Shown here one piece after another: positions 1 through 50,306 of a DNA stretch of 54,249 bases. Where the stretch lies: positions 1-54,249 of the IMG/VR virus record IMGVR_UViG_3300010398_000013; one strand, 5' to 3'. Position 1 is the stretch's first letter. Each line of letters begins with the position of its first letter. The notes below the pieces were generated by a model, which had not been told where the DNA came from, did no database searches, and worked only from the letters and a program-made list of their open reading frames with translations. The position numbers and the translations under genes are program-made. This DNA is from a virus. Lineage: Duplodnaviria; Caudoviricetes.

Positions 1-666
1 GGCGGCGTCCGTTCCGGTGAAGCACGACGGCAGCAGACCGCTCGACCAGCCGAAGCAAAGACGAAGCAGAGGGCCCGCGGAAATGAAGCACAAGCCGCTG
101 AAACAGCAAGCAAAACTGAAGCAAATGCGAAGCAAAGACGAAGCAAAGACGAAGCAAACCTGAAGCAAACGGGAAGCAAAGGCGAAGCAAACGCGAAGCA
201 AACGGGAAGCAAAAGCGAAGCAGAGGGCCAAGCAAACGGGAAGCAAAACGAAGCTCTGCAGTCTGCATCTGCTTCTGCATCTGCTTCTGCTTCCCCTAGA
301 CCTGTATTTAATTCTTTCCCTCGAGTGGGTGGTAGACCTGGACGCGGCCCGACCGACGCGCCAACGGAATTTGAAATCAGCGAGCAGATGCGGGAATGGG
401 CAAATGCGGAAGGCTTTGACAATCCCACCATCGCTCAGGAAACCGCCATGATGCTGGATCACTTCCGCGGCAAAGGCCAGCGCCGGACGGACTGGGTGGC
501 GACGTGGCGGAACTGGTTGAGACGCGAACGCAAATACGGAGGTTCCGGAAATGGAAAGCAACGGCAGTACGAATCCCCCGCTCAAGCGCGCATGCGACGA
601 CAAGACGAAGCGGAGGCACGTGTGCTTGCAAAATTTGAAGCGGATGGAGGCGGCGTTCCGCACTGA
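1..666 (+). CDS. Phage replication initiator (lambda O/YdaU-like, DnaT-like C-terminus), 5'-partial
   Basis: Frame 1 is open from base 1 (GGVRSGEARR...) through the iteron block to TGA 666; C-terminal DHFRGKG..DWVATWRNWLRR motif typical of phage initiators. Confidence 0.75.
   Translation, partial: GGVRSGEARRQQTARPAEAKTKQRARGNEAQAAETASKTEANAKQRRSKDEANLKQTGSKGEANAKQTGSKSEAEGQANGKQNEALQSASASASASASPRPVFNSFPRVGGRPGRGPTDAPTEFEISEQMREWANAEGFDNPTIAQETAMMLDHFRGKGQRRTDWVATWRNWLRRERKYGGSGNGKQRQYESPAQARMRRQDEAEARVLAKFEADGGGVPH
52..317 (+). repeat. Replication-origin iterons inside the initiator gene
   Basis: GAAGCAAA-core repeats at 11-bp period (118,129,140,151,162,173,184,195,206,217), then inverted TGC(A/T)TC hexamers at ~265-293 and an AT-rich patch at 303-317. 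Confidence 0.8.
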
Positions 667-4631: not shown

Positions 4632-4673
4632 AAAAAACGGGCCCGTTGTTCCGACGGGCCCGTTTTGTTTTTT
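4632..4673. terminator. Bidirectional intrinsic terminator
   Basis: AAAACGGGCCCGT/ACGGGCCCGTTTT stem with A-run before and T-run after. Confidence 0.85.
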
Positions 4674-13153: not shown

Positions 13154-14283
13154 CAATATTGATCCTGGGGGATATTCAAGAAGTCGTAATCGGGATCATA
13201 CAGCAAGCGGATCAGCCGTTCCCCATAGCGCGTGTAATCGTAGTATTTGCGGGCCGCGCGGCACCAGCCGACGACAATCTTCATCCGGTAGCCCGAGGGT
13301 GAACCGTATTCGCGGTAGCGCAGGCACGAGATCGGTTCCAAAAACTGATGCTCGATCAAACTGGTGATGAAGGACGTGCGGTCCCGCCACGGCGAGTCGA
13401 CGAGGCGCACCAGCTTGGCGCGATCCGGCAGGGTTTCCAGGCGGGCCCCGCCTTTGCGATGCCGGATGCGCTTCGGCTCCCCGAGGGGCATCACCTCGTC
13501 CCAGTAGTAGCGGAGGATTTGGCGGTGCCAGCGCAGCACATAACTGGAGAGGATCCGCCGCACCATCGCCTGATCGGTGGAAGCGGTCGCCGCTCGACCG
13601 AAAAGGGCGGCCCGGTTGGCCTCGAGCCGGTGGATGTTGCGCAACAGGACGGGTCCATACTGCAAGTCTCGGTTCAAGTCTTCCAGATCCTTCAGCCACA
13701 CGGTGACGGCCGGGGGCCATTCCGCGATGGGGACCGCCGGCTGGCGATTCACCGGGTCCAGGACCAGTTTCATCTGCCGCAGCAATTCTTCCCTCGCCTC
13801 GCGGGAGGGCAGACGCTCAACCTCGACTTCGCCGTTCAAGCGGACCGTCTCTTGGCAAAGGATCCGGTAGGTTTCCGTTGTGGGCTCATCCATCTTGCGG
13901 TCGTTCATGTCGATGTCGATGAAGATCCGCCCTTTCAAATGGCGCTCCTTCAGCCACAGGTACGTCGACTGCTCGTAGAGGTCCAGGGCGAGCGGTTTTC
14001 GGGAGCGCATGGGTGCCAGATCTTCCAGCTTCGGCCACCCCAGCCGCTCCAGCACCCATCCGAGATCCTCCCAGAAGGGATGGCGTTTGGCATCAATCGC
14101 GAGCCAGACCGGCGCTTCCGGATACGCCAGAACCAGGGCCGCCAGGATCGTTTCCATCAGCTCTTCCGGGATCCCATACTCGGAGGCGGCGTACGCCTTG
14201 ACGTCGTGGAGCCGCGAGCGGCACTGCTCGCCGTAGCGTTCATCCGGTTCGCTCGAGCGGACGATGGAAAAAGGTCTTGACAC
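13153..14283 (-). CDS. Degenerate MCM-like AAA+ paralogue lacking Walker A
   Basis: PVWL, hhhhDM and lid-like RL.ANRAALFGR....D.AMVRRIL segments resemble the 1685-2992 protein. Confidence 0.6.
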   Translation of the reverse strand: MSRPFSIVRSSEPDERYGEQCRSRLHDVKAYAASEYGIPEELMETILAALVLAYPEAPVWLAIDAKRHPFWEDLGWVLERLGWPKLEDLAPMRSRKPLALDLYEQSTYLWLKERHLKGRIFIDIDMNDRKMDEPTTETYRILCQETVRLNGEVEVERLPSREAREELLRQMKLVLDPVNRQPAVPIAEWPPAVTVWLKDLEDLNRDLQYGPVLLRNIHRLEANRAALFGRAATASTDQAMVRRILSSYVLRWHRQILRYYWDEVMPLGEPKRIRHRKGGARLETLPDRAKLVRLVDSPWRDRTSFITSLIEHQFLEPISCLRYREYGSPSGYRMKIVVGWCRAARKYYDYTRYGERLIRLLYDPDYDFLNIPQDQY

Positions 14284-14306
14284 GCCAAAAAAACTAGCAT
14301 TACCGT
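14277..14306 (+). promoter_or_regulatory. Promoter for rightward (late) operon
   Basis: TTGACA-18 nt-TACCGT, same as 31936-31965. Confidence 0.7.
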
Positions 14307-14331
14307 GGTTTTTTTCCTAACGGAATTCGCG

Positions 14332-14706
14332 ATGACCCTGGCCGATTTCCTCCAGCGCCTGCGCTCGCCGAAAGAGACACTGAAAACGGCCTTGCTGACG
14401 ATTGTCCTGGCCACCATCTCCATCATCGGCACCCAGATCTCGACCGGCCTCTACAATATCCTTTACGCCCGCCTGGAATTCCCGATGGTCGTGGCGGGTG
14501 TGGAATCGCTCCGGCAGGATCTGCAAACGGTCCCCTGTACGGCGATCCCGATGATGGCCAATCAGGCCGTCGAGGTGAACCGCATTATCGATTACCGCAA
14601 GGAAGTGCGGCGCCACTGGTGGAGTTACTGGATGGTGCATCCGGACTGGTTAGCCGTCCGGCGCCTCCAGATCCCGTGCCGGCCGTTGCGGGAGATGGCC
14701 CCGTGA
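14332..14706 (+). CDS. Membrane-anchored hypothetical protein
   Basis: TM ALLTIVLATISIIGT; GTGA coupling to next gene. Confidence 0.6.
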   Translation: MTLADFLQRLRSPKETLKTALLTIVLATISIIGTQISTGLYNILYARLEFPMVVAGVESLRQDLQTVPCTAIPMMANQAVEVNRIIDYRKEVRRHWWSYWMVHPDWLAVRRLQIPCRPLREMAP

Positions 14707-27847: not shown

Positions 27848-28075
27848 ATGAAAGTCTTTCAATCGTCGAATTTGAATACGGGCCATTACAACCCGGAGAC
27901 GTCCCGGCTGACGATCGGCTTCGTCTCCGGCTACGCTTACGAGTACGACGTGCCGCCCGAGGTCTGGGACGCCTTGAGTACGGCTGTTGATCCCAATGCC
28001 TATTTCCAGGCGTATATCCGGCCGATCTACCGGGGCAAAATGATCCTGTCGCCCCAATCGGGGGAACGGGAATAG
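27848..28075 (+). CDS. KTSC domain protein
   Basis: SSN....Y......L.I.F.SG..YEY.VP..V...L..A.....YF...IR. Confidence 0.88.
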   Translation: MKVFQSSNLNTGHYNPETSRLTIGFVSGYAYEYDVPPEVWDALSTAVDPNAYFQAYIRPIYRGKMILSPQSGERE

Positions 28076-28821: not shown

Positions 28822-30885
28822 ATGTCCTACCGGCGTGACGGCAACTACTACCTGATCCCGCCGCCGTTCGACCGTAAAACCGGACAGCCGGCCGATGCCG
28901 ACGCTCAATTCAGCTGGTCGCGAGAAATGGTTCAGGCCGGTAAAGCCTTTCTCAAGCTGCAACCGGCCCACAGCTTCATTCAGGACGGTCTGGACATCAT
29001 CAACGGCGAATTTGCCCGTTCGACCATTCAAGCCTTGTCGAATGTCAAGACGGAACTCGTGGTCCGCAACATGAAAGAGTTGAATGCATCGCAGTCGAAC
29101 CTCAATATCGTCCCGGCGATCACGACTGAAAACGAGCAGTTCCGCGCCCAAACGCAAGTCCTGAACAACTGCTATACGTACTGGTCGTCGAAGACCTTCA
29201 GCGATCGGGTGATCCGCAAAGGCTGGCAGTATGCGACGGGCCTCGGTACCGGCTACGTGTCGATCGGCTATGACCCGGACTACTATGGCATCCGCCAGGG
29301 CGAGATTGCGTTACGCGCGCATGGGCCGCTGGACGTGCTGCCCTTGGGGCTGCCCCATGATCACGACTTGCAAAAGACCTATGCGGTGGCCTTGCGCATC
29401 CCGACGCCCTACCACCAAGCGGTGCGCTACTTCCCCGAAATGGCCGACAAGATCCATCCGACCCGGGACCCGTTAAAGCAGCACGGCACCGTCATGGCGC
29501 AATCGGTCAAATTTGCCTCGGCCGTTCTGAAACGCTTTGGTCCTGGTGCCACTCAGGAACAGGAATCCTTATCCTGGGCCGAGACCGACCTCTACTACAT
29601 CTTCATCGACGACAGAACGGAGAATTGGGGTCCGGAACCCCTTTTGATGGGAGACCCGGGCACCTCTTGGGAATACGAAGTCCCGTATGTCGGCCAGATG
29701 ATCTACGAAGGGACCGACAGTCGCGGCCGCAAGCACTACCGCAAAGCCAAGCCCGAGGACTGTCTGGTCTACCCCTACCGCCGCATGATGGTCTGTACCG
29801 ACGATGCGGTACTCAATCCCGACCCCACCTTGCAAGTCAATCATGGCTGGCATGCGAAAGTACCGGTCGTGCAGTTCCGGGCCGACGACTGGCCCTGGAA
29901 TTTCCTGGGCTTCCCTTTATCGAAGGCCGGAATGCTTTTAGAGAAAGCCAACATTGAAATCTTGCGCGCCATGGTGGATGCCATGAATGTGCGACTCTCC
30001 CCGCCGACCGGCTACGACCGCAACACGATGGCCCGCTCCTTGGCGGAGACGATGAACCTGCGCATCCCCAACCAGCGCATTGGTTTGGATTACACCTTAG
30101 GGGGCGAGCAATTTCGGCCCCTCTTGCCGGTCGAATTTTACAACGTCCCGGCCAATGCCCAGGAAATGATCCAAGCCAACGAAGCCCGCATTACGCATCA
30201 AATGGGTGTTGCCGACGCGACGGCCTTGGCCCGGGCCCGGCAACTGCCCGCGGGCGATTCCACCGAACGCCTGCTGGACGCGTTAGGCCCGATCATCAAA
30301 GACCAGTCGCGCAACATGGAACTCTCCGTCACCCAGCTGGGCGACATGTGGGTACCGTTATGCTTCCAGTGGTGGAATGCCGCCCGGCGCTTCCGCATTT
30401 TTGGTGTGGATGGCCTGGTCGATGCGGACGTGGACTGGAATCCCGGCAACTTTGTGCCGCAGACCGAGCAGGACCGCCTCGGCAGCTATTTCGAAGCCGG
30501 TCGCCAGCACGCCTCCATTTTTCACTACGGCATCGAGCCGTATTCGCTGCATGAACTGAATTCGCTGACGCGCAAAATGGTTTACATGCAACTCGAACGG
30601 GGCGGCTTCCCGATCAGCTGGTGGACCCTGGCACGGATCTGGGGCATCAAAAATTTCGGACCCAAACCCCGGGATACGAATCCGGCGTCGCCGACCTTCA
30701 ATAAGGAGTACATTACGGAATTCGAGTTGTGGTTGGCCGAGCAGGAAATGAAAGCCCGATTTGCGCAGGCGGGAGCTCAAGCCGGGGGTCCGCGTCCGGG
30801 CCGTAAGCCGACCGGCCAGCAGCCGCCCACCCTCCAGTCCAAAGGCGGCGGGACACGCTCGACGGTTCGCGAATCGCCGCGCTAG
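28822..30885 (+). CDS. Portal protein
   Basis: 687 aa between TerL and scaffold/MCP; YATGLGTGY, H..VP.V.F....WPW.F.G.PL pattern of podovirus portals. Confidence 0.8.
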   Translation: MSYRRDGNYYLIPPPFDRKTGQPADADAQFSWSREMVQAGKAFLKLQPAHSFIQDGLDIINGEFARSTIQALSNVKTELVVRNMKELNASQSNLNIVPAITTENEQFRAQTQVLNNCYTYWSSKTFSDRVIRKGWQYATGLGTGYVSIGYDPDYYGIRQGEIALRAHGPLDVLPLGLPHDHDLQKTYAVALRIPTPYHQAVRYFPEMADKIHPTRDPLKQHGTVMAQSVKFASAVLKRFGPGATQEQESLSWAETDLYYIFIDDRTENWGPEPLLMGDPGTSWEYEVPYVGQMIYEGTDSRGRKHYRKAKPEDCLVYPYRRMMVCTDDAVLNPDPTLQVNHGWHAKVPVVQFRADDWPWNFLGFPLSKAGMLLEKANIEILRAMVDAMNVRLSPPTGYDRNTMARSLAETMNLRIPNQRIGLDYTLGGEQFRPLLPVEFYNVPANAQEMIQANEARITHQMGVADATALARARQLPAGDSTERLLDALGPIIKDQSRNMELSVTQLGDMWVPLCFQWWNAARRFRIFGVDGLVDADVDWNPGNFVPQTEQDRLGSYFEAGRQHASIFHYGIEPYSLHELNSLTRKMVYMQLERGGFPISWWTLARIWGIKNFGPKPRDTNPASPTFNKEYITEFELWLAEQEMKARFAQAGAQAGGPRPGRKPTGQQPPTLQSKGGGTRSTVRESPR

Positions 30886-30898
30886 AAAGGAGCATGCG

Positions 30899-31147
30899 AT
30901 GGGATTACTGTCGGATGTGATGGGTAATGAAACGCTATCGAGCGGTCTGGCCAATATGCTGCGCGGCAAAACCTTCGGCGGCAATACGCGCAAGCGGGAT
31001 CGGCGCCGAACCGTAACGCCGATGCAGGAATTCCGCCGCGGCGGCAAGGTCCGCCGTACCGGTTTGGCCAAAGTGCACAAAGGTGAGCATATCTTGACCC
31101 GGCGGCAAGCCCGAGCCCGGCGGCGGCCTCTCCGGCGGAGGCCCTGA
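30899..31147 (+). CDS. Arg-rich small virion-module protein
   Basis: AAAGGAG RBS; FRRGGKVRRTGLAKVHKGE..L motif. Confidence 0.7.
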   Translation: MGLLSDVMGNETLSSGLANMLRGKTFGGNTRKRDRRRTVTPMQEFRRGGKVRRTGLAKVHKGEHILTRRQARARRRPLRRRP

Positions 31148-31148
31148 A

Positions 31149-31340
31149 ATGGCCGAGCGCTTCATTCAACAAGCCACCGAACGCATGCGCGAGAAGGGTA
31201 CCTTGGGGGCGTTCGGCAAAGCCACGGCTAAAAAAATCGCCCGCGCCAAGAAAAAAGGCGGACTCCAAAAAAAGCGCGCGGTCTTCGCGGAAAACATGCG
31301 CCGGATCGCCCGGCGCCGGAAGCGGAGGTCCGACCGATGA
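31149..31340 (+). CDS. Lys/Arg-rich small protein
   Basis: FIQ.A....KGT.G.F......KRAVFAENM. Confidence 0.75.
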   Translation: MAERFIQQATERMREKGTLGAFGKATAKKIARAKKKGGLQKKRAVFAENMRRIARRRKRRSDR

Positions 31341-31558
31341 CGAAAGCCAATCCTGAAACCGTCATGGACGAGCTCAACATGATGGAACTGGCCGATGGCC
31401 TGATCGACATTGCCGGTCTCTTGTACTCGCCCGAAACCATGAACGACTTGTCCGCCTCCATCCGCTTACTGAAGCATGTGGCCGAGCGTCTGGAACATCT
31501 CGAAAAGGAGCGTCAGCATGCCCGCCGAACGGTTCACCCGCCGCGCCAATACGCCTAA
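31337..31558 (+). CDS. Hypothetical protein
   Basis: GGAGG RBS, ATGA coupling. Confidence 0.55.
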   Translation: MTKANPETVMDELNMMELADGLIDIAGLLYSPETMNDLSASIRLLKHVAERLEHLEKERQHARRTVHPPRQYA

Positions 31559-31718
31559 AAAGCGTCGGCAATGGCAGCATGTTTATGAATCGGCCCGAGC
31601 GCGGGGTGCCGAGGAAGGTTCCGCCATCGCTCAGGCGAGCGGGGTGATCAAGCAGGCCGATATCCGCCAGGGCCAGAAGCGGCGTCATTTCCGGAGGGGC
31701 CGTGGCCGCAAACGCTAA
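31518..31718 (+). CDS. ChaB-like Arg-rich small protein
   Basis: AAGGAG RBS; RQWQHVYESA...G..E.SA...A.GV. Confidence 0.65.
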   Translation: MPAERFTRRANTPKKRRQWQHVYESARARGAEEGSAIAQASGVIKQADIRQGQKRRHFRRGRGRKR

Positions 31719-31920
31719 CCCGACGCCGGTCCATCTCCAGGCGCCCGCCAGCTCGAAACCGCTGCCGACCCACGAAATCTATTCGCTGCAGTCGACGGAA
31801 CTGCATTTTGTCCTCGAAGTGATCCGGTCGGGCTCGAAAACCGGCTCCCTGACGATCCATTTTAGTCAGGGCACCCCGTCGGGCACTCTGGAATGGAAAG
31901 AGCGCGTCCGCCACGGCTAA
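31702..31920 (+). CDS. Small DUF2292/YezD-like protein
   Basis: GGAGG RBS + GTG; helix then TGSLTIHFSQG beta-hairpin. Confidence 0.5.
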   Translation: MAANANPTPVHLQAPASSKPLPTHEIYSLQSTELHFVLEVIRSGSKTGSLTIHFSQGTPSGTLEWKERVRHG

Positions 31921-31935
31921 GGCTGCGTATTTCTA

Positions 31936-31965
31936 TTGACATCCCGAAAGCCTTCATCTTACCGT
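31936..31965 (+). promoter_or_regulatory. Late promoter for head genes
   Basis: TTGACA-18 nt-TACCGT. Confidence 0.7.
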
Positions 31966-31971
31966 AAATCC

Positions 31972-32125
31972 GTCTGGGGTTTTGCCATCGTTGGTTGAGG
32001 CCGGTCCCAAGGACTTGAACTCCATCTCAAGTCACCAAAGGAGGCCGGAAGCGGAGAGCGGGCGCTCTTAGCTTCCGGCCTCTTTTTTTGTGTCCCGGCT
32101 TCAACCCGGTAGCTTCGCTCCAGAC
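31972..32125 (+). ncRNA. Candidate structured leader RNA/attenuator
   Basis: Nested complementary pairs 31972-80/32117-25, 31993-32004/32095-106, 32012-18/32027-33 and terminator stem. Confidence 0.55.
32041..32089 (+). terminator. Intrinsic terminator within late leader
   Basis: GAGGCCGGAAGC/GCTTCCGGCCTC 12-bp stem + T7. Confidence 0.88.
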
Positions 32126-32181
32126 TATGCCAAGTACCGATAGCCAGCCTCTTCCTGGTGGTCGGAGAAAGGATAGCTCCC

Positions 32182-32250
32182 ATGATCGGAGTATTTGAGA
32201 CAGCCGAACGTGGCCGCCGACGTGGCCGTGGCCGGAAAAAGCGCAGATAG
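32182..32250 (+). CDS. 22-aa protamine-like peptide
   Basis: AGAAAGGA RBS; MIGVFETAERGRRRGRGRKKRR. Confidence 0.6.
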   Translation: MIGVFETAERGRRRGRGRKKRR

Positions 32251-32319
32251 CGCCACCGGGGCTGAGGAGAACCTGAAATTCCGATCAGCCCGCTGTCTCC
32301 ATCCACGGGAGCCATTGGA

Positions 32320-32448
32320 ATGGCCAGACGACGTATCTCTATGCCGAAAGATGGACTGCGTGCTCCGGGCACGACCATGATCCGCACGCCCATGAAATCC
32401 TTTACGGGGCATCGGCGCGGCACCATGCGCCGGAGAGCCAAACGCTAG
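32320..32448 (+). CDS. 42-aa Arg-rich peptide
   Basis: GGGAG RBS; MARRRISMPKDGLRAPGTTMIRTPMKSFTGHRRGTMRRRAKR. Confidence 0.6.
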   Translation: MARRRISMPKDGLRAPGTTMIRTPMKSFTGHRRGTMRRRAKR

Positions 32449-32451
32449 TTT

Positions 32452-32772
32452 ATGTCCCGAGTCGCAACACCCATGCCGACCGATCCGGCGTCGACCGCCC
32501 AAAACTATGGCGGAACCTCGATGCAGCGGTTGGCCGGTGGCGCCGAAGACGTGACGACAGGGGCCCCTGGCGCTGAAGGTACCCCCGATCAGATGGCAAC
32601 GGTGACCAATACCTTACGGGAATGTTCGGACCGCATCATGTCCGTGGTCGGCCAGAATCCGAAGGTGGCCAAAGAAGCTCGCGAGGCTTTAGCCGCCATC
32701 CGCCGTTTAGCCGCCGCTTTTGTATCGAATCCGGGAGCCGGCCCCGAGCCGACGCCGCGGACGAATTATTAA
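32452..32772 (+). CDS. Hypothetical head-module protein
   Basis: 106 aa just upstream of scaffold; helical C-half. Confidence 0.65.
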   Translation: MSRVATPMPTDPASTAQNYGGTSMQRLAGGAEDVTTGAPGAEGTPDQMATVTNTLRECSDRIMSVVGQNPKVAKEAREALAAIRRLAAAFVSNPGAGPEPTPRTNY

Positions 32773-32844
32773 CCATGAAACCCTACCAACAACTCGCCAT
32801 GGACTCCTTTCGAGGAACAACCCGGAAGCGAACTGGAGGCGACC

Positions 32845-33846
32845 GTGCCGGTTGACGCTAACCGTGTGACCTCTTTAATCGATGAGCTGGGCTTACCGCA
32901 AGCCGACAAAGACTTCCTGACGAAATCTTTAACGGATCCGGCCAACGACGCCTCCGCCCAGCGCTTCATCTCCCAGCGGCAGCGTCACGACGAATTCACC
33001 CGCCGCACTCAAGATTGGTCCACGGAGCGGGCCAATTTGGAGCGGCGCGTCAACGACGAGACCGCTCGCTATGCTCAGGATCTCCAGGATGCCAACGGCA
33101 AGCTGGCCCAGGTGGCCCGCGATTTGGAAACCTCCCGCATCAACGAGTCCACCGCGCAGGCCCGTATCCAAAAAATCAAGACAATGTACAACCTGTCGGA
33201 TGACGATCTGCCGCCAGCGGAAGCGTCCGGGAATCGTCCGCTCCCCGAGCCCGTCCCGCACTTAACCGCCGACGCCGTGAACGGCATTTTGAAGAAGTTC
33301 CGCGACGACCTGATGAAGGAATTCCGGCCCGAGTTTGAAGCCTTTCCGCGTGTCGCCGCGTTAATGGACGATATCGACGCCCAGCACCGCGACCTGCTGG
33401 GCAAGCGCCTGACCTACGACGAAAAGCAGGAACTGATCAAAACCGCTCAGGTCGAAAACGGACCTTCTCTGTTGAAAGCGTGGCGGGACAAATACGATAT
33501 CGCCACGATTGAAAAGCAGCGCGAACGGGAGGAATGGACCCGGACGGAGCGCCAGAAGTGGGAAGACGAACGGCGCGCGAAGGATTCGGCCGATGCGTTA
33601 GCGGGCGTCCGGCGCCATTCGGCGAATCAGCCGGCGACGGTCAGTCCCGTCTTGAATCGTAAGTTTACCGAGCATCCCACGACCCTGGAGCGGCCGGGGA
33701 CGGCCCCGGTACCCTCGCCGCCGGCCCCGGTGCAAAGCGAAGCGCCCAAATTGACGGGGGCCGAGCGGGCGGCCGCTAAATTTCTCGAGCGCCGTGCCGC
33801 CAATATACCGATGGGCGAGCGGGCACCGCTACCGACGCGAACCTGA
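32845..33846 (+). CDS. Capsid scaffolding protein
   Basis: Charged coiled coil, directly upstream of MCP; GGAGG RBS + GTG. Confidence 0.7.
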   Translation: MPVDANRVTSLIDELGLPQADKDFLTKSLTDPANDASAQRFISQRQRHDEFTRRTQDWSTERANLERRVNDETARYAQDLQDANGKLAQVARDLETSRINESTAQARIQKIKTMYNLSDDDLPPAEASGNRPLPEPVPHLTADAVNGILKKFRDDLMKEFRPEFEAFPRVAALMDDIDAQHRDLLGKRLTYDEKQELIKTAQVENGPSLLKAWRDKYDIATIEKQREREEWTRTERQKWEDERRAKDSADALAGVRRHSANQPATVSPVLNRKFTEHPTTLERPGTAPVPSPPAPVQSEAPKLTGAERAAAKFLERRAANIPMGERAPLPTRT

Positions 33847-33865
33847 TGTTTAGGAGAGTATTTCC

Positions 33866-35017
33866 ATGGCCGATCCGATTTTGGACGAAATCAACCTGAC
33901 GACCCTTCCTGAAGTCAACGACTCGGCCATCGAGGACGTCTTCTTTTTAGGAAGCGTTCTCCAAGCCCATCTCCGCGCCAAGTGCTTGGTCCCCTTCACC
34001 GGTGGCGCTTTCATCCGCAACCTGCAGTTGTATGCCCCGCTCAATGGCGGTGCCTACCCGAAGTCGATCGGCGGCTTCAATCTGACCAAGCCGCAAACGC
34101 TCTCCGGTACGGTGTTCGACCCGCGCTACTACTGCGTGATGATTATCGAGTACCTGGAAGACATCGACGTGCTGAATACGGGCGATTTGAGCGTTTTCAG
34201 CCTGGTCGAAACCGATGTCGCCAACGGCTACCAGACCATCTCGGCATTGATGGCCTTGGACCTTCAGTTGAACGGCCAATTGGGAGCCCGCAGCGGCATC
34301 AATATGAACGGCTGGGTCGAGGCCTTCGACGATGGCATCCTACCGGCCTACGACGGCAACATCTATACCAACTACGGCACGGCCTTACGTAACGGTGCCG
34401 TCAAGCGCGGTTTGAATGGCAACGTCTACTGGGGCGGCAAAAGCGACGGGACGAACGGGGCGATCTCCTACCCCCAGTTGAATGCCATGTACAACCTGGC
34501 CAAGCGCGGACGCGACGAAGTCGATCTGATCTGCGGCAATAAGCCGATCATCTCGTTTGTGGAAAACCGCATTCAGCCGATGCAGCGCTTCGGCCAGGAC
34601 GCGCCGTCGGTACGCGATCCCTACTTCGGGGCCACGGGATTCCGGTTCAAAAATGCCGTCGTCATGATCGACGACTATTTCCCGTCGGCGTTCGGGGCAC
34701 CGTACTCCGATAGTTCGAATTTCGGCCTCGGCTCCAATTTAACCGCGCCCTTCACCAACACCTTGACGGGAACTCCGGCCAACAACTTCCCGAATTCGAC
34801 CGCGGCGCCGACCTTGACGCCGGGCGAAGTCCTGACCATGTTCAACACGACGCGGATGCGGTTCCGGGTCTCGAATTCGAAGGAGTTCGGTTTCAATCCC
34901 ACCGACTTCATCCGCACGCCCGACAACACCCGCGTGGCGTCGCAGTTGAAAGCGGCAGTGAATTTGGAAGTCACGGCCCCGTGGTCGGGCGTTCAGGGCT
35001 ACGGCTGGAACAGTTAA
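33866..35017 (+). CDS. Major capsid protein
   Basis: 383 aa after scaffold; AGGAG RBS; P..Y.......ED...N.G......L, DLI.G....F...IQP.QRF, TGF.F..A....D.Y.P pattern of HK97-fold MCPs. Confidence 0.85.
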   Translation: MADPILDEINLTTLPEVNDSAIEDVFFLGSVLQAHLRAKCLVPFTGGAFIRNLQLYAPLNGGAYPKSIGGFNLTKPQTLSGTVFDPRYYCVMIIEYLEDIDVLNTGDLSVFSLVETDVANGYQTISALMALDLQLNGQLGARSGINMNGWVEAFDDGILPAYDGNIYTNYGTALRNGAVKRGLNGNVYWGGKSDGTNGAISYPQLNAMYNLAKRGRDEVDLICGNKPIISFVENRIQPMQRFGQDAPSVRDPYFGATGFRFKNAVVMIDDYFPSAFGAPYSDSSNFGLGSNLTAPFTNTLTGTPANNFPNSTAAPTLTPGEVLTMFNTTRMRFRVSNSKEFGFNPTDFIRTPDNTRVASQLKAAVNLEVTAPWSGVQGYGWNS

Positions 35018-49683: not shown

Positions 49684-49740
49684 TGGCGCTTGTTCGCCCG
49701 CCTCCCAAGTGGGCGAACAAGCGCCATCCCGAGTCGGGAT
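49684..49740. repeat. Two adjacent hairpins after OMP gene
   Basis: 16-bp perfect inverted repeat TGGCGCTTGTTCGCCC/GGGCGAACAAGCGCCA and ATCCCGA-G-TCGGGAT. Confidence 0.8.
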
Positions 49741-50306
49741 TAGAATCGCACGACGAGGCCTGTCGAGATCCGGACACCATTCGATGATATGCCGAAGTCA
49801 CTCGCCTTGACATACGAGTAATCGACCTGGGCCGCCCGGATGGCCAAATGTTGGCCGACCGGAATATCCAGCCCTCCCCCAATGGCGGCGGAGAATCCGG
49901 TTGTCGAGGTGGACAAGCTCAATGCGCCGACGCTTCCGCTCACCATCGTCTGTGCGAGGCCGAACAACGCATGCACGTAGGGCGTGACCTTCTCTGCTCG
50001 AAACGCAAACTTCGGCCCGCCCTGAAACGATAACAAGCGGACGTTGGCTTGGACGGGTACGACCACAAACCCATTCGTGACGAGCACACTCTGACCCCAG
50101 TAATGGCCGCTGAAGTCGCCCTCGATCCCAAACCACGTGTTCACGTAGCCTGTCCCCGATACATCGAATCCTTTTCCCATGTTCGCGCCTTCGTGTCTTG
50201 CGAACGAATATCCACCGAACACTTCGGCACGATCCTGGCCGAAGGCGGCCACGGCAGAAATCAGAATCACCATCACCACAAAGCTGAGTCTTGTTGCATA
50301 TTGCAT
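49740..50306 (-). CDS. Outer-membrane beta-barrel protein (8-strand, Lom/Ail/OmpA-like)
   Basis: Signal peptide; EVFGGYS, GIEGDFSGHY, PYVHALFG, GGGLD, terminal RF. Confidence 0.9.
   Translation of the reverse strand: MQYATRLSFVVMVILISAVAAFGQDRAEVFGGYSFARHEGANMGKGFDVSGTGYVNTWFGIEGDFSGHYWGQSVLVTNGFVVVPVQANVRLLSFQGGPKFAFRAEKVTPYVHALFGLAQTMVSGSVGALSLSTSTTGFSAAIGGGLDIPVGQHLAIRAAQVDYSYVKASDFGISSNGVRISTGLVVRF

Follow-up and report, generated by a model that had tools for sequence, protein, structure and literature searches.

How does a phage express its capsid genes when the strongest terminator of its genome stands in front of them? This question is raised by a 54,249-bp stretch of DNA from an uncultured soil phage lineage (the whole of IMG/VR virus record IMGVR_UViG_3300010398_000013, ~91% complete, 59% G+C; hereafter the window), in which the entire virion gene block lies behind that terminator, downstream of a host-type promoter. 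The timing of virion-gene expression is little known outside model phages. The element at issue is a structured leader RNA that follows a sigma70-like promoter, encloses the terminator, and is succeeded by a small conserved hairpin (the box) and by an Arg/Lys-rich micro-ORF (open reading frame, ORF) ahead of the scaffold and capsid genes. We propose, with about even confidence, that this leader is a premature-termination checkpoint of the lambda PR'-tR' type for the head/virion operon, where read-through would occur by leak or with the help of a factor. The locus is composed as follows.

31702-31920, + strand: 72-aa ORF from the ORF list, the last gene before the promoter
31936-31965, + strand: sigma70-like promoter TTGACA-18-TACCGT, recognised from sequence, with a predicted start at ~31971-31973
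31972-32125, + strand: structured leader of ~155 nt, folded with RNAfold, enclosing the terminator
32037-32092, + strand: intrinsic terminator, a GC-rich ~20-bp hairpin followed by seven U, called from stem energy and inverted repeat
32133-32165, + strand: box hairpin AGUACCGAUAG...GUCGG, in which AGUA precedes a CCGAU:GUCGG base, an A is left unpaired and the apical stem-loop varies
32164-32250, + strand: Shine-Dalgarno site GGAGAAAGGA and 22-codon Arg/Lys-rich micro-ORF (ATG at 32182, stop ending at 32250), the first cistron past the leader

A strong terminator follows the predicted promoter of the head genes

The promoter combines a -35 element TTGACA (31936-31941), a spacer of 18 nt and a -10 element TACCGT (31960-31965). 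A generic promoter scan missed it because the -10 fits at 3 of 6 positions only. The genome has one further copy of TTGACA-18-TACCGT, identical in sequence, at 14277; it directly precedes the leading gene of a rightward gene block (~14.3-48 kb, 34 kb) that contains the leader terminator. This second copy (14277-14335) lies at the divergent junction that opens the block, has a short 5' untranslated region (UTR) with an ATG at 14333, and is not followed by a structured leader (fold z -0.8). An earlier annotation made from the letters of this DNA alone (the sequence-only reading) had noted no other clear promoter for the head genes, and indeed no promoter-like site (at least 5/6 matches in the -35, nAnnnT as the -10) was found on the + strand between 32090 and 34814. 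Thus, transcripts from either the 14277 or the 31936 promoter must cross the terminator to reach the virion genes.

The positions previously assigned to the promoter, stems, hairpin and terminator all matched the sequence, and RNAfold returned the same nested fold. An outer stem of 9 bp (31972-80/32117-25, with two G-U pairs) and an inner stem of 12 bp (31993-32004/32095-32106, with one G-U pair) enclose a 7-bp hairpin (32012-18/32027-33) and the terminator, and the G-U pairs of the leader stems fit the + strand only. When folded over 31965-32130, the nested structure reached -92.3 kcal/mol, compared with -54.9 +/- 4.3 kcal/mol for 200 dinucleotide shuffles, none of which came as low (z -8.62). 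The terminator stem occupies 32041-32082, is extendable to 32037-32086 and is followed by TTTTTTT; it thereby presents the GC-rich hairpin and U-tract of an intrinsic terminator on the transcribed strand, the reverse strand having no U-tract. At -35.0 kcal/mol it is the strongest terminator of the 54-kb genome on both strands, the runner-up reaching -20.9 kcal/mol, and these values bear out the view of the locus as a promoter-proximal structured leader with a strong terminator before the scaffold and capsid genes. Its end lies ~120 nt past the predicted start, a layout as in lambda PR'-tR'. The runner-up is a perfect bidirectional terminator-like hairpin in the leftward region (4638-4662; -20.9 and -17.8 kcal/mol, U-runs on both strands). 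Beyond these two, the genome has no strong terminator.

The RNA had been described as belonging to no recognised family, and the Rfam search agreed: at gathering thresholds there were no matches in the whole window and none in 16 related loci, and at E <= 10 the region 31700-32500 gave only miRNA-like matches on the bare terminator hairpin, scoring at most 28.8 bits against gathering thresholds of 35-97.

The layout is conserved among relatives

The 383-aa ORF taken as the major capsid protein (MCP) retrieved 17 related phage loci with 45-91% identity. When 31921-32200 and 30800-33900 were compared by blastn with these MCP-defined loci, no match fell within 31921-32126, and only the box region and the coding flanks aligned. 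The leader DNA shows no detectable similarity even in relatives with 87-91% capsid identity, and it is the layout alone that is conserved.

An 11-mer of the box (32133-32143) was found exactly in 12 of the 17 MCP-defined relatives and as close variants in two more. A loose pattern, AGTACCGATAG N3-33 GTCGG, matched at least 119 stretches, mostly by chance in coding DNA, and was replaced by a tighter one consisting of the 11-mer and the following GTCGGRGAARG, which collected 28 viral and 30 metagenome loci. Four of the latter (L169, L171, L174 and L183) were chance matches in coding DNA and were dropped, leaving 55 true loci of 59 with the window included, or 37 distinct modules, again counting the window, after removal of duplicates, each on a contig of an uncultured phage.

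Across these modules the order was constant: (often) a homologue of the 72-aa gene, then promoter, leader, box hairpin, strong Shine-Dalgarno site, micro-ORF and head genes. A promoter of the form TTGAC(A/T/C), with 16-18 nt spacing and an nAnnnT -10, was mapped at the equivalent place in 34 of 37 modules, and two of the remaining three are truncated. A terminator was present in 32 of 37: among the 34 leaders whose promoter was mapped, 29 have one (hairpins of -14 to -40 kcal/mol), and it was also recognised, as judged by eye, in L149, L192 and L196, for which no promoter was mapped. The other five modules (L140, L150, L155, L189 and L191) have terminator-less leaders of 56-84 nt, in which the promoter leads straight to the box and ORF; the promoter therefore serves the downstream genes, and the comparison reveals the terminator-bearing RNA as an insert of the 5' UTR that is optional. 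By sequence, the leaders form unrelated classes, namely a large class I, a class around L145, L146, L154 and L176, and leaders that stand alone, among them the window, L162 and L152. The conservation in relatives on which the sequence-only reading had staked its proposal was thus found for the layout, in 37 distinct modules, and is missing for the leader sequence, which cannot be aligned.

In eight of the 37 modules (L139, L140, L148, L161, L164, L167, L185 and L186) a near-perfect palindrome, GTAGAnTCTAC (often TGTAGAnTCTACA), is located 13-78 nt upstream of the -35; the window has none. This palindrome is a candidate operator for a dimeric DNA-binding regulator.

A covarying box hairpin abuts the first cistron

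The box hairpin abuts the Shine-Dalgarno site of the micro-ORF, lying immediately 5' of GGAGAAAGGA. All 33 distinct box versions fold with the same CCGAU:GUCGG base, unpaired A and apical stem-loop of variable length, an invariance of the base that is partly by construction, most loci having been collected by pattern. A covariance model made from five box versions found the element in 36 of 40 sources (these include 11 of the 15 MCP-defined loci searched, L004 and L005, identical to L003, being left out). In the box alignment, which was fitted to this covariance model, 99.7% of 327 cells were paired, and 30 double-sided changes were counted versus 6.6 +/- 2.1 in shuffles (0/500 reached the observed number); slid registers gave 22-52% pairing. 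No Rfam family matched the hairpin. The box is a new, covarying RNA hairpin motif of the head-operon 5' UTR, and it has statistical support.

In 23 of 24 distinct viral modules, the box precedes a micro-ORF of 13-25 codons whose product ends with a run of Arg/Lys (a script identified 22, and L146 was re-read from an internal ATG as 13 codons; L154 has none). The micro-ORF is present in the metagenome modules too. One relative, L148 (the same phage as L011), carries a second, degenerate copy of the box just upstream of the box itself, with a compensated base change (CCGACAG...CUGUCG) and a GGAAGG stretch of its own; no ORF was seen after this copy in the stretch read.

Long-range helices span the terminator

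We also compared the pairing between the two flanks of the terminator with that of shuffled flanks. In the window the flank-to-flank duplex reached -48.0 kcal/mol, compared with -24.1 +/- 4.1 kcal/mol for shuffled flanks (z -5.9, 0/200). Flank pairing beat the shuffles in 29/29 leaders (z < 0), with z <= -1.9 in 16 of them, and in 11 leaders at most 2 of 200 shuffles reached the observed energy, the window being the most extreme. Under a stricter control, in which each upstream flank was set against downstream flanks of unrelated classes (non-native flanks), the window and L145 ranked 0/20 and six class-I leaders ranked 0/9. The helix of class I, CCCCGGAAGC:GUUUCUGGGG, is 81% paired and overlaps the distal U-tract. 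Terminator-spanning helices are, then, frequent, very strong in the window, and not universal.

Because the 3' strands of these helices are transcribed after the termination decision, the helices can exist in read-through RNA only, and the closing helix cannot influence that decision. In such RNA, the segment past the U-tract would pair to the 5' end of the transcript through the 12-bp and 9-bp stems and produce a long imperfect helix, which probably marks the read-through mRNA for 5'-end protection or RNase III-type maturation.

Termination is predicted to be the default

The window contains GAGGCCGG twice, at 31997-32004 and at 32041-32048, the latter in the 5' arm of the terminator, with CCGGCCTC at 32075-32082 and CCGGCTTC at 32096-32103. 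From this repeat, the sequence-only reading had proposed mutually exclusive terminator and antiterminator folds, in which the upstream copy pairs with the 3' arm. The folding energies do not support this: with the 5' arm blocked, the best fold of the nascent RNA with GAGGCCGG:CCGGCCTC came to -28.7 kcal/mol, versus -54.9 kcal/mol with the terminator. Nor is the alternative pairing kept in relatives, where upstream segment versus 3' arm gave z < -2 in 2 of 29 leaders (window, -1.5), and the classical antiterminator pairing, upstream segment versus 5' arm, did so in 0 of 29. Given the gap of 26 kcal/mol and a pairing that is not conserved, we rejected a self-contained two-state switch and take termination as the default.

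In the checkpoint that we propose, for a phage that appears reliant on host RNA polymerase, the sigma70-like promoter would fire ~10 nt before the structured RNA. By default, polymerase would stop at the terminator (~32089-32092) and release a structured RNA of ~120 nt. The operon from the box hairpin through the Shine-Dalgarno site and Arg-rich micro-ORF to the scaffold and capsid genes would be present in read-through transcripts alone. Read-through may arise by leak or, more likely, through a trans-acting, polymerase-modifying factor, and capsid production probably depends on overriding the stop signal. From this layout one would expect either antitermination or a leak that is tightly set, and no antiterminator can be recognised; candidates for this role are the 72-aa orphan protein, small basic proteins, the micro-peptide and the leader RNA.

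The 72-aa protein upstream of the promoter is an orphan

Among the candidates, the 72-aa protein had been singled out earlier as 'DUF2292-like', a label that hidden Markov models (HMMs) do not support. The DUF2292 (PF10055) HMM had no match at E <= 1 in the protein or in 21 members of its family, and no match at E <= 10 in a six-frame search of the window in which the controls rang; the sole hint of DUF2292 was a language-model (Atlas) feature score of 0.79 to DUF2292-named viral clusters, below the bar of 0.9. Neither Pfam nor PHROGs matched the protein, even at E <= 1, and the 21 family members likewise had no match. Its 92 database relatives are all unnamed or 'hypothetical protein', none with a Pfam domain. 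The AlphaFold2 model (predicted local distance difference test score of 80) presents a predicted beta-alpha-beta-beta unit, for which Foldseek returned nothing at E <= 0.001 among PDB structures, the top rows being PII/ACT-like and NusG/RfaH-like with template-modelling scores of at most 0.51; no recognisable RNA-binding fold was found at that threshold. In a profile search of the PDB, the best match was an unnamed chain (E 0.0013). The 72-aa protein is thus an orphan phage family.

Of the 37 distinct modules, 22 have a homologue of this protein (21-48% identity within the family) encoded immediately before them. In 3/3 terminator-bearing phages without an adjacent copy, the gene lies 4-6 kb upstream with other genes between, and it is missing from 3/3 records with terminator-less leaders, one of these being a 100%-complete genome and the others fragments of 10% and 32%. 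This co-occurrence of the gene with terminator-bearing leaders is suggestive, and it is confounded by phylogeny.

The KTSC protein that had been named as the other possible partner of the RNA does carry that domain (Pfam, 7.6e-14). Its gene (27848-28075) is 3.9 kb upstream of the leader, and nothing ties it to the leader.

Alternative explanations of the leader

Several observations speak against a termination checkpoint. Five relatives have no terminator at all, so the gating is dispensable in some lineages. Pfam scans of 75 window ORFs (16 + 34 + 25) found no Q-family or other antiterminator, the missing Q match being weak evidence since Q proteins are diverse. The closing helices of L152, L151, L143, L157 and L141 are unremarkable against non-native flanks, so that only the window, L145 and the six class-I leaders rank first, and the effect is marginal when 10 independent leader classes are taken together (t-test p 0.076, Wilcoxon p 0.084). 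The covariation that had been suggested as a check, present in the box hairpin, did not exceed shuffles in the class-I closing helix (93/500 reached the observed value, in an alignment that omits L148, the 17th class-I leader, and in which the MAFFT register slips by one column in the rows of L142, L144 and L187) because the two strands vary too little, and at slid registers pairing remains at 66-72%. Finally, start, stop and read-through are all predictions: the four public runs listed as containing the stretch are soil DNA, and one of them may be the source sample.

Some of the same facts could be accommodated, with limited likelihood, by a constitutive leaky attenuator that doubles as a small RNA (sRNA) gene: the stable ~120-nt 5' UTR RNA would have a function in trans, a fixed read-through would feed the head genes, and no dedicated antiterminator would be involved. 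Promoter, ~120 nt and strong terminator are the architecture of an sRNA gene; no antiterminator gene was found; the class-I leaders retain a 5' segment (CUGAAGGRCGUUC...CCCCGGAAGC); and the literature describes 5' UTR sRNAs made by premature termination in 201phi2-1 (PMC11512511) and StxS from PR'-tR' (PMC7547250). However, little leakage is to be expected from a 20-bp, -35 kcal/mol hairpin followed by seven U, yet all virion genes are behind it; a leader that is unalignable at 87-91% capsid identity would be odd for a trans-acting seed; and the selected post-terminator pairing is possible in read-through RNA only. Were the stems incidental, arising from GC-rich sequence or local duplication around a plain operon-end terminator that has no leader function, one would expect the closing helix to be weak or absent in some lineages, as it is, and the GAGGCCGG duplication to be specific to the window, as it also is. 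We regard this as very improbable given the fold z of -8.6, the flank duplex z of -5.9, G-U pairs that fit the + strand only, and an order of promoter, terminator and box conserved in dozens of phages.

The remaining explanations assign read-through to a particular component. The sequence-only reading had the 72-aa protein bind the leader and flip the terminator to the antiterminator fold, which would resemble conAn, and the position of the gene fits this: a homologue is directly upstream in 22 of 37 modules and 4-6 kb upstream in 3/3 terminator-bearing phages that lack an adjacent copy, it is missing in 3/3 terminator-less records, and conAn offers a precedent for a protein acting with an adjoining RNA element (PMC8191782). 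Yet the alternative fold falls short by 26 kcal/mol and relatives do not keep its pairing, the leader classes share no sequence or motif that a family with 21-48% identity could recognise, no PDB structure matches the small beta-alpha-beta-beta fold at E <= 0.001, and the co-occurrence depends on a single complete genome as its negative, with phylogeny confounding it and the other negatives being 10% and 32% fragments; we therefore consider this mechanism unlikely. It is less likely still that the RNA acts by itself as a processive antiterminator in cis, as put or canT do, with the stem-loops at 31975-32009 and 32012-32033 making polymerase ignore this and later terminators. The nascent RNA does form two adjoining stem-loops before the terminator is reached, a pair of hairpins likewise precedes the terminator of class-I leaders, and canT is a precedent (PMC11658703). 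Against it, constitutive action would make the embedded terminator pointless for any transcript bearing the element, including those from 14277, and the pre-terminator hairpins have neither conserved sequence nor shape across classes and no Rfam match.

A more far-reaching possibility, which we hold to be doubtful, is a new phage antitermination or licensing system made of lineage-specific parts, either the box with the Arg-rich micro-peptide encoded right behind it (an arginine-rich-motif peptide and its partner RNA, as lambda N and boxB in the N leader) or the 72-aa protein with the leader (conAn-like). In the version with box and micro-peptide, to which the same doubt extends, the pair might act on polymerase or on translation of the whole virion operon. 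If true, this would be a protein/RNA pair without known relatives that controls capsid expression in a widespread soil phage group.

Gene block and genomic setting

The neighbouring genes of the block were named by position and size, as PHROGs and Pfam searches found no match for the head proteins.

28822-30885: 687-aa ORF from the ORF list, at the portal position, with several small ORFs after it
32320-32448, + strand: 42-aa basic ORF from the ORF list, downstream of the leader
32452-32772, + strand: 106-aa ORF from the ORF list, downstream of the leader
32845-33846, + strand: 333-aa ORF at the scaffold position, named by position and size
33866-35017, + strand: 383-aa ORF taken as the MCP, named by position and size

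Between the portal- and scaffold-position genes are small, very basic ORFs (30761-31718 and 32320-32448), possibly one of 128 aa, then others of 63, 80 and 42 aa, several of which end in Arg/Lys runs, as the micro-ORF does. In relatives, an ORF starting MARR... likewise follows the micro-ORF. Small basic ORFs of this kind are located at 31149-31340, 31476-31718 and 32320-32448. One guess is that these small basic ORFs encode packaged DNA-binding peptides. A minus-strand ORF of 160 aa (31959-32441) was set aside, as it was not chosen by the composition-based gene pick and overlaps the conserved + strand micro-ORFs.

The window contains neither tRNA nor tmRNA genes, and the 75 ORFs scanned with Pfam gave no RNA polymerase or integrase family. 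A scan of GTDB genome contigs gave two matches, both by chance in coding sequence, and no host was identified. An outer-membrane beta-barrel protein gene on the minus strand (49740-50306; Pfam OMP_b-brl, 1.8e-9) hints at a Gram-negative (diderm) host. Near the left end of the window (51-244) there are ~17 tandem 11-nt units of the form GAAGCAAAnnn.

Comparison with known systems

The proposed checkpoint resembles lambda PR'-tR'-Q in having a promoter before the late genes, an intrinsic terminator within ~200 nt, a short structured default RNA (6S RNA or StxS) and a need for read-through; as reported, PR' is active at all times, its transcripts end shortly downstream, and the small RNA StxS is the by-product (PMC7547250). 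In contrast to lambda, no Q-family Pfam match was found in the 75 window ORFs scanned, the lineage is unrelated, and its head proteins have no PHROGs match. Moreover, the terminator here is nested in long-range helices, and a conserved hairpin and micro-ORF come after it.

The long-range helices themselves recall lambda sib/tI, where read-through extends the terminator hairpin into a longer duplex, a substrate of RNase III. Similarly, the 12-bp and 9-bp closing stems would extend the hairpin in read-through RNA only. Lambda sib lies 3' of the gene that it regulates and destabilises it, whereas the helix described here is in the 5' UTR, where cleavage by RNase III would be a conjecture from this likeness.

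Among RNA elements that counter termination, put of HK022 has two stem-loops. Such elements are, like our leader, structured RNAs located just after the main promoter of a long, terminator-containing operon. According to the respective reports, the RNA of canT from Tn916, transcribed behind the main promoter, acts in cis to carry transcription through terminator T1 and others (PMC11658703), and conAn of pLS20 combines a protein with an RNA element encoded just downstream of its gene (PMC8191782). Here the 72-aa gene adjoins 22 of 37 modules, but it ends the preceding block and is not the first of the operon. Furthermore, in conAn, canT and put the RNA defeats terminators, whereas here no part of the RNA is more stable or better conserved than the terminator, and no pre-terminator domain is conserved across leader classes.

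Promoter-proximal terminators ahead of structural genes are also found in the Pseudomonas phage 201phi2-1. There, as reported, the terminators before the major capsid gene map close behind promoters, and premature termination gives rise to eight 5' UTR-derived sRNAs, read by the authors as timing control that hints at antitermination (PMC11512511). 201phi2-1 is a jumbo phage with no sequence or structural relation to the present lineage, and its sites were mapped, whereas ours are predicted from sequence. Terminator-in-leader designs, mapped in jumbo phages, thus recur in unrelated phages, which points to a general theme and not a lambdoid speciality.

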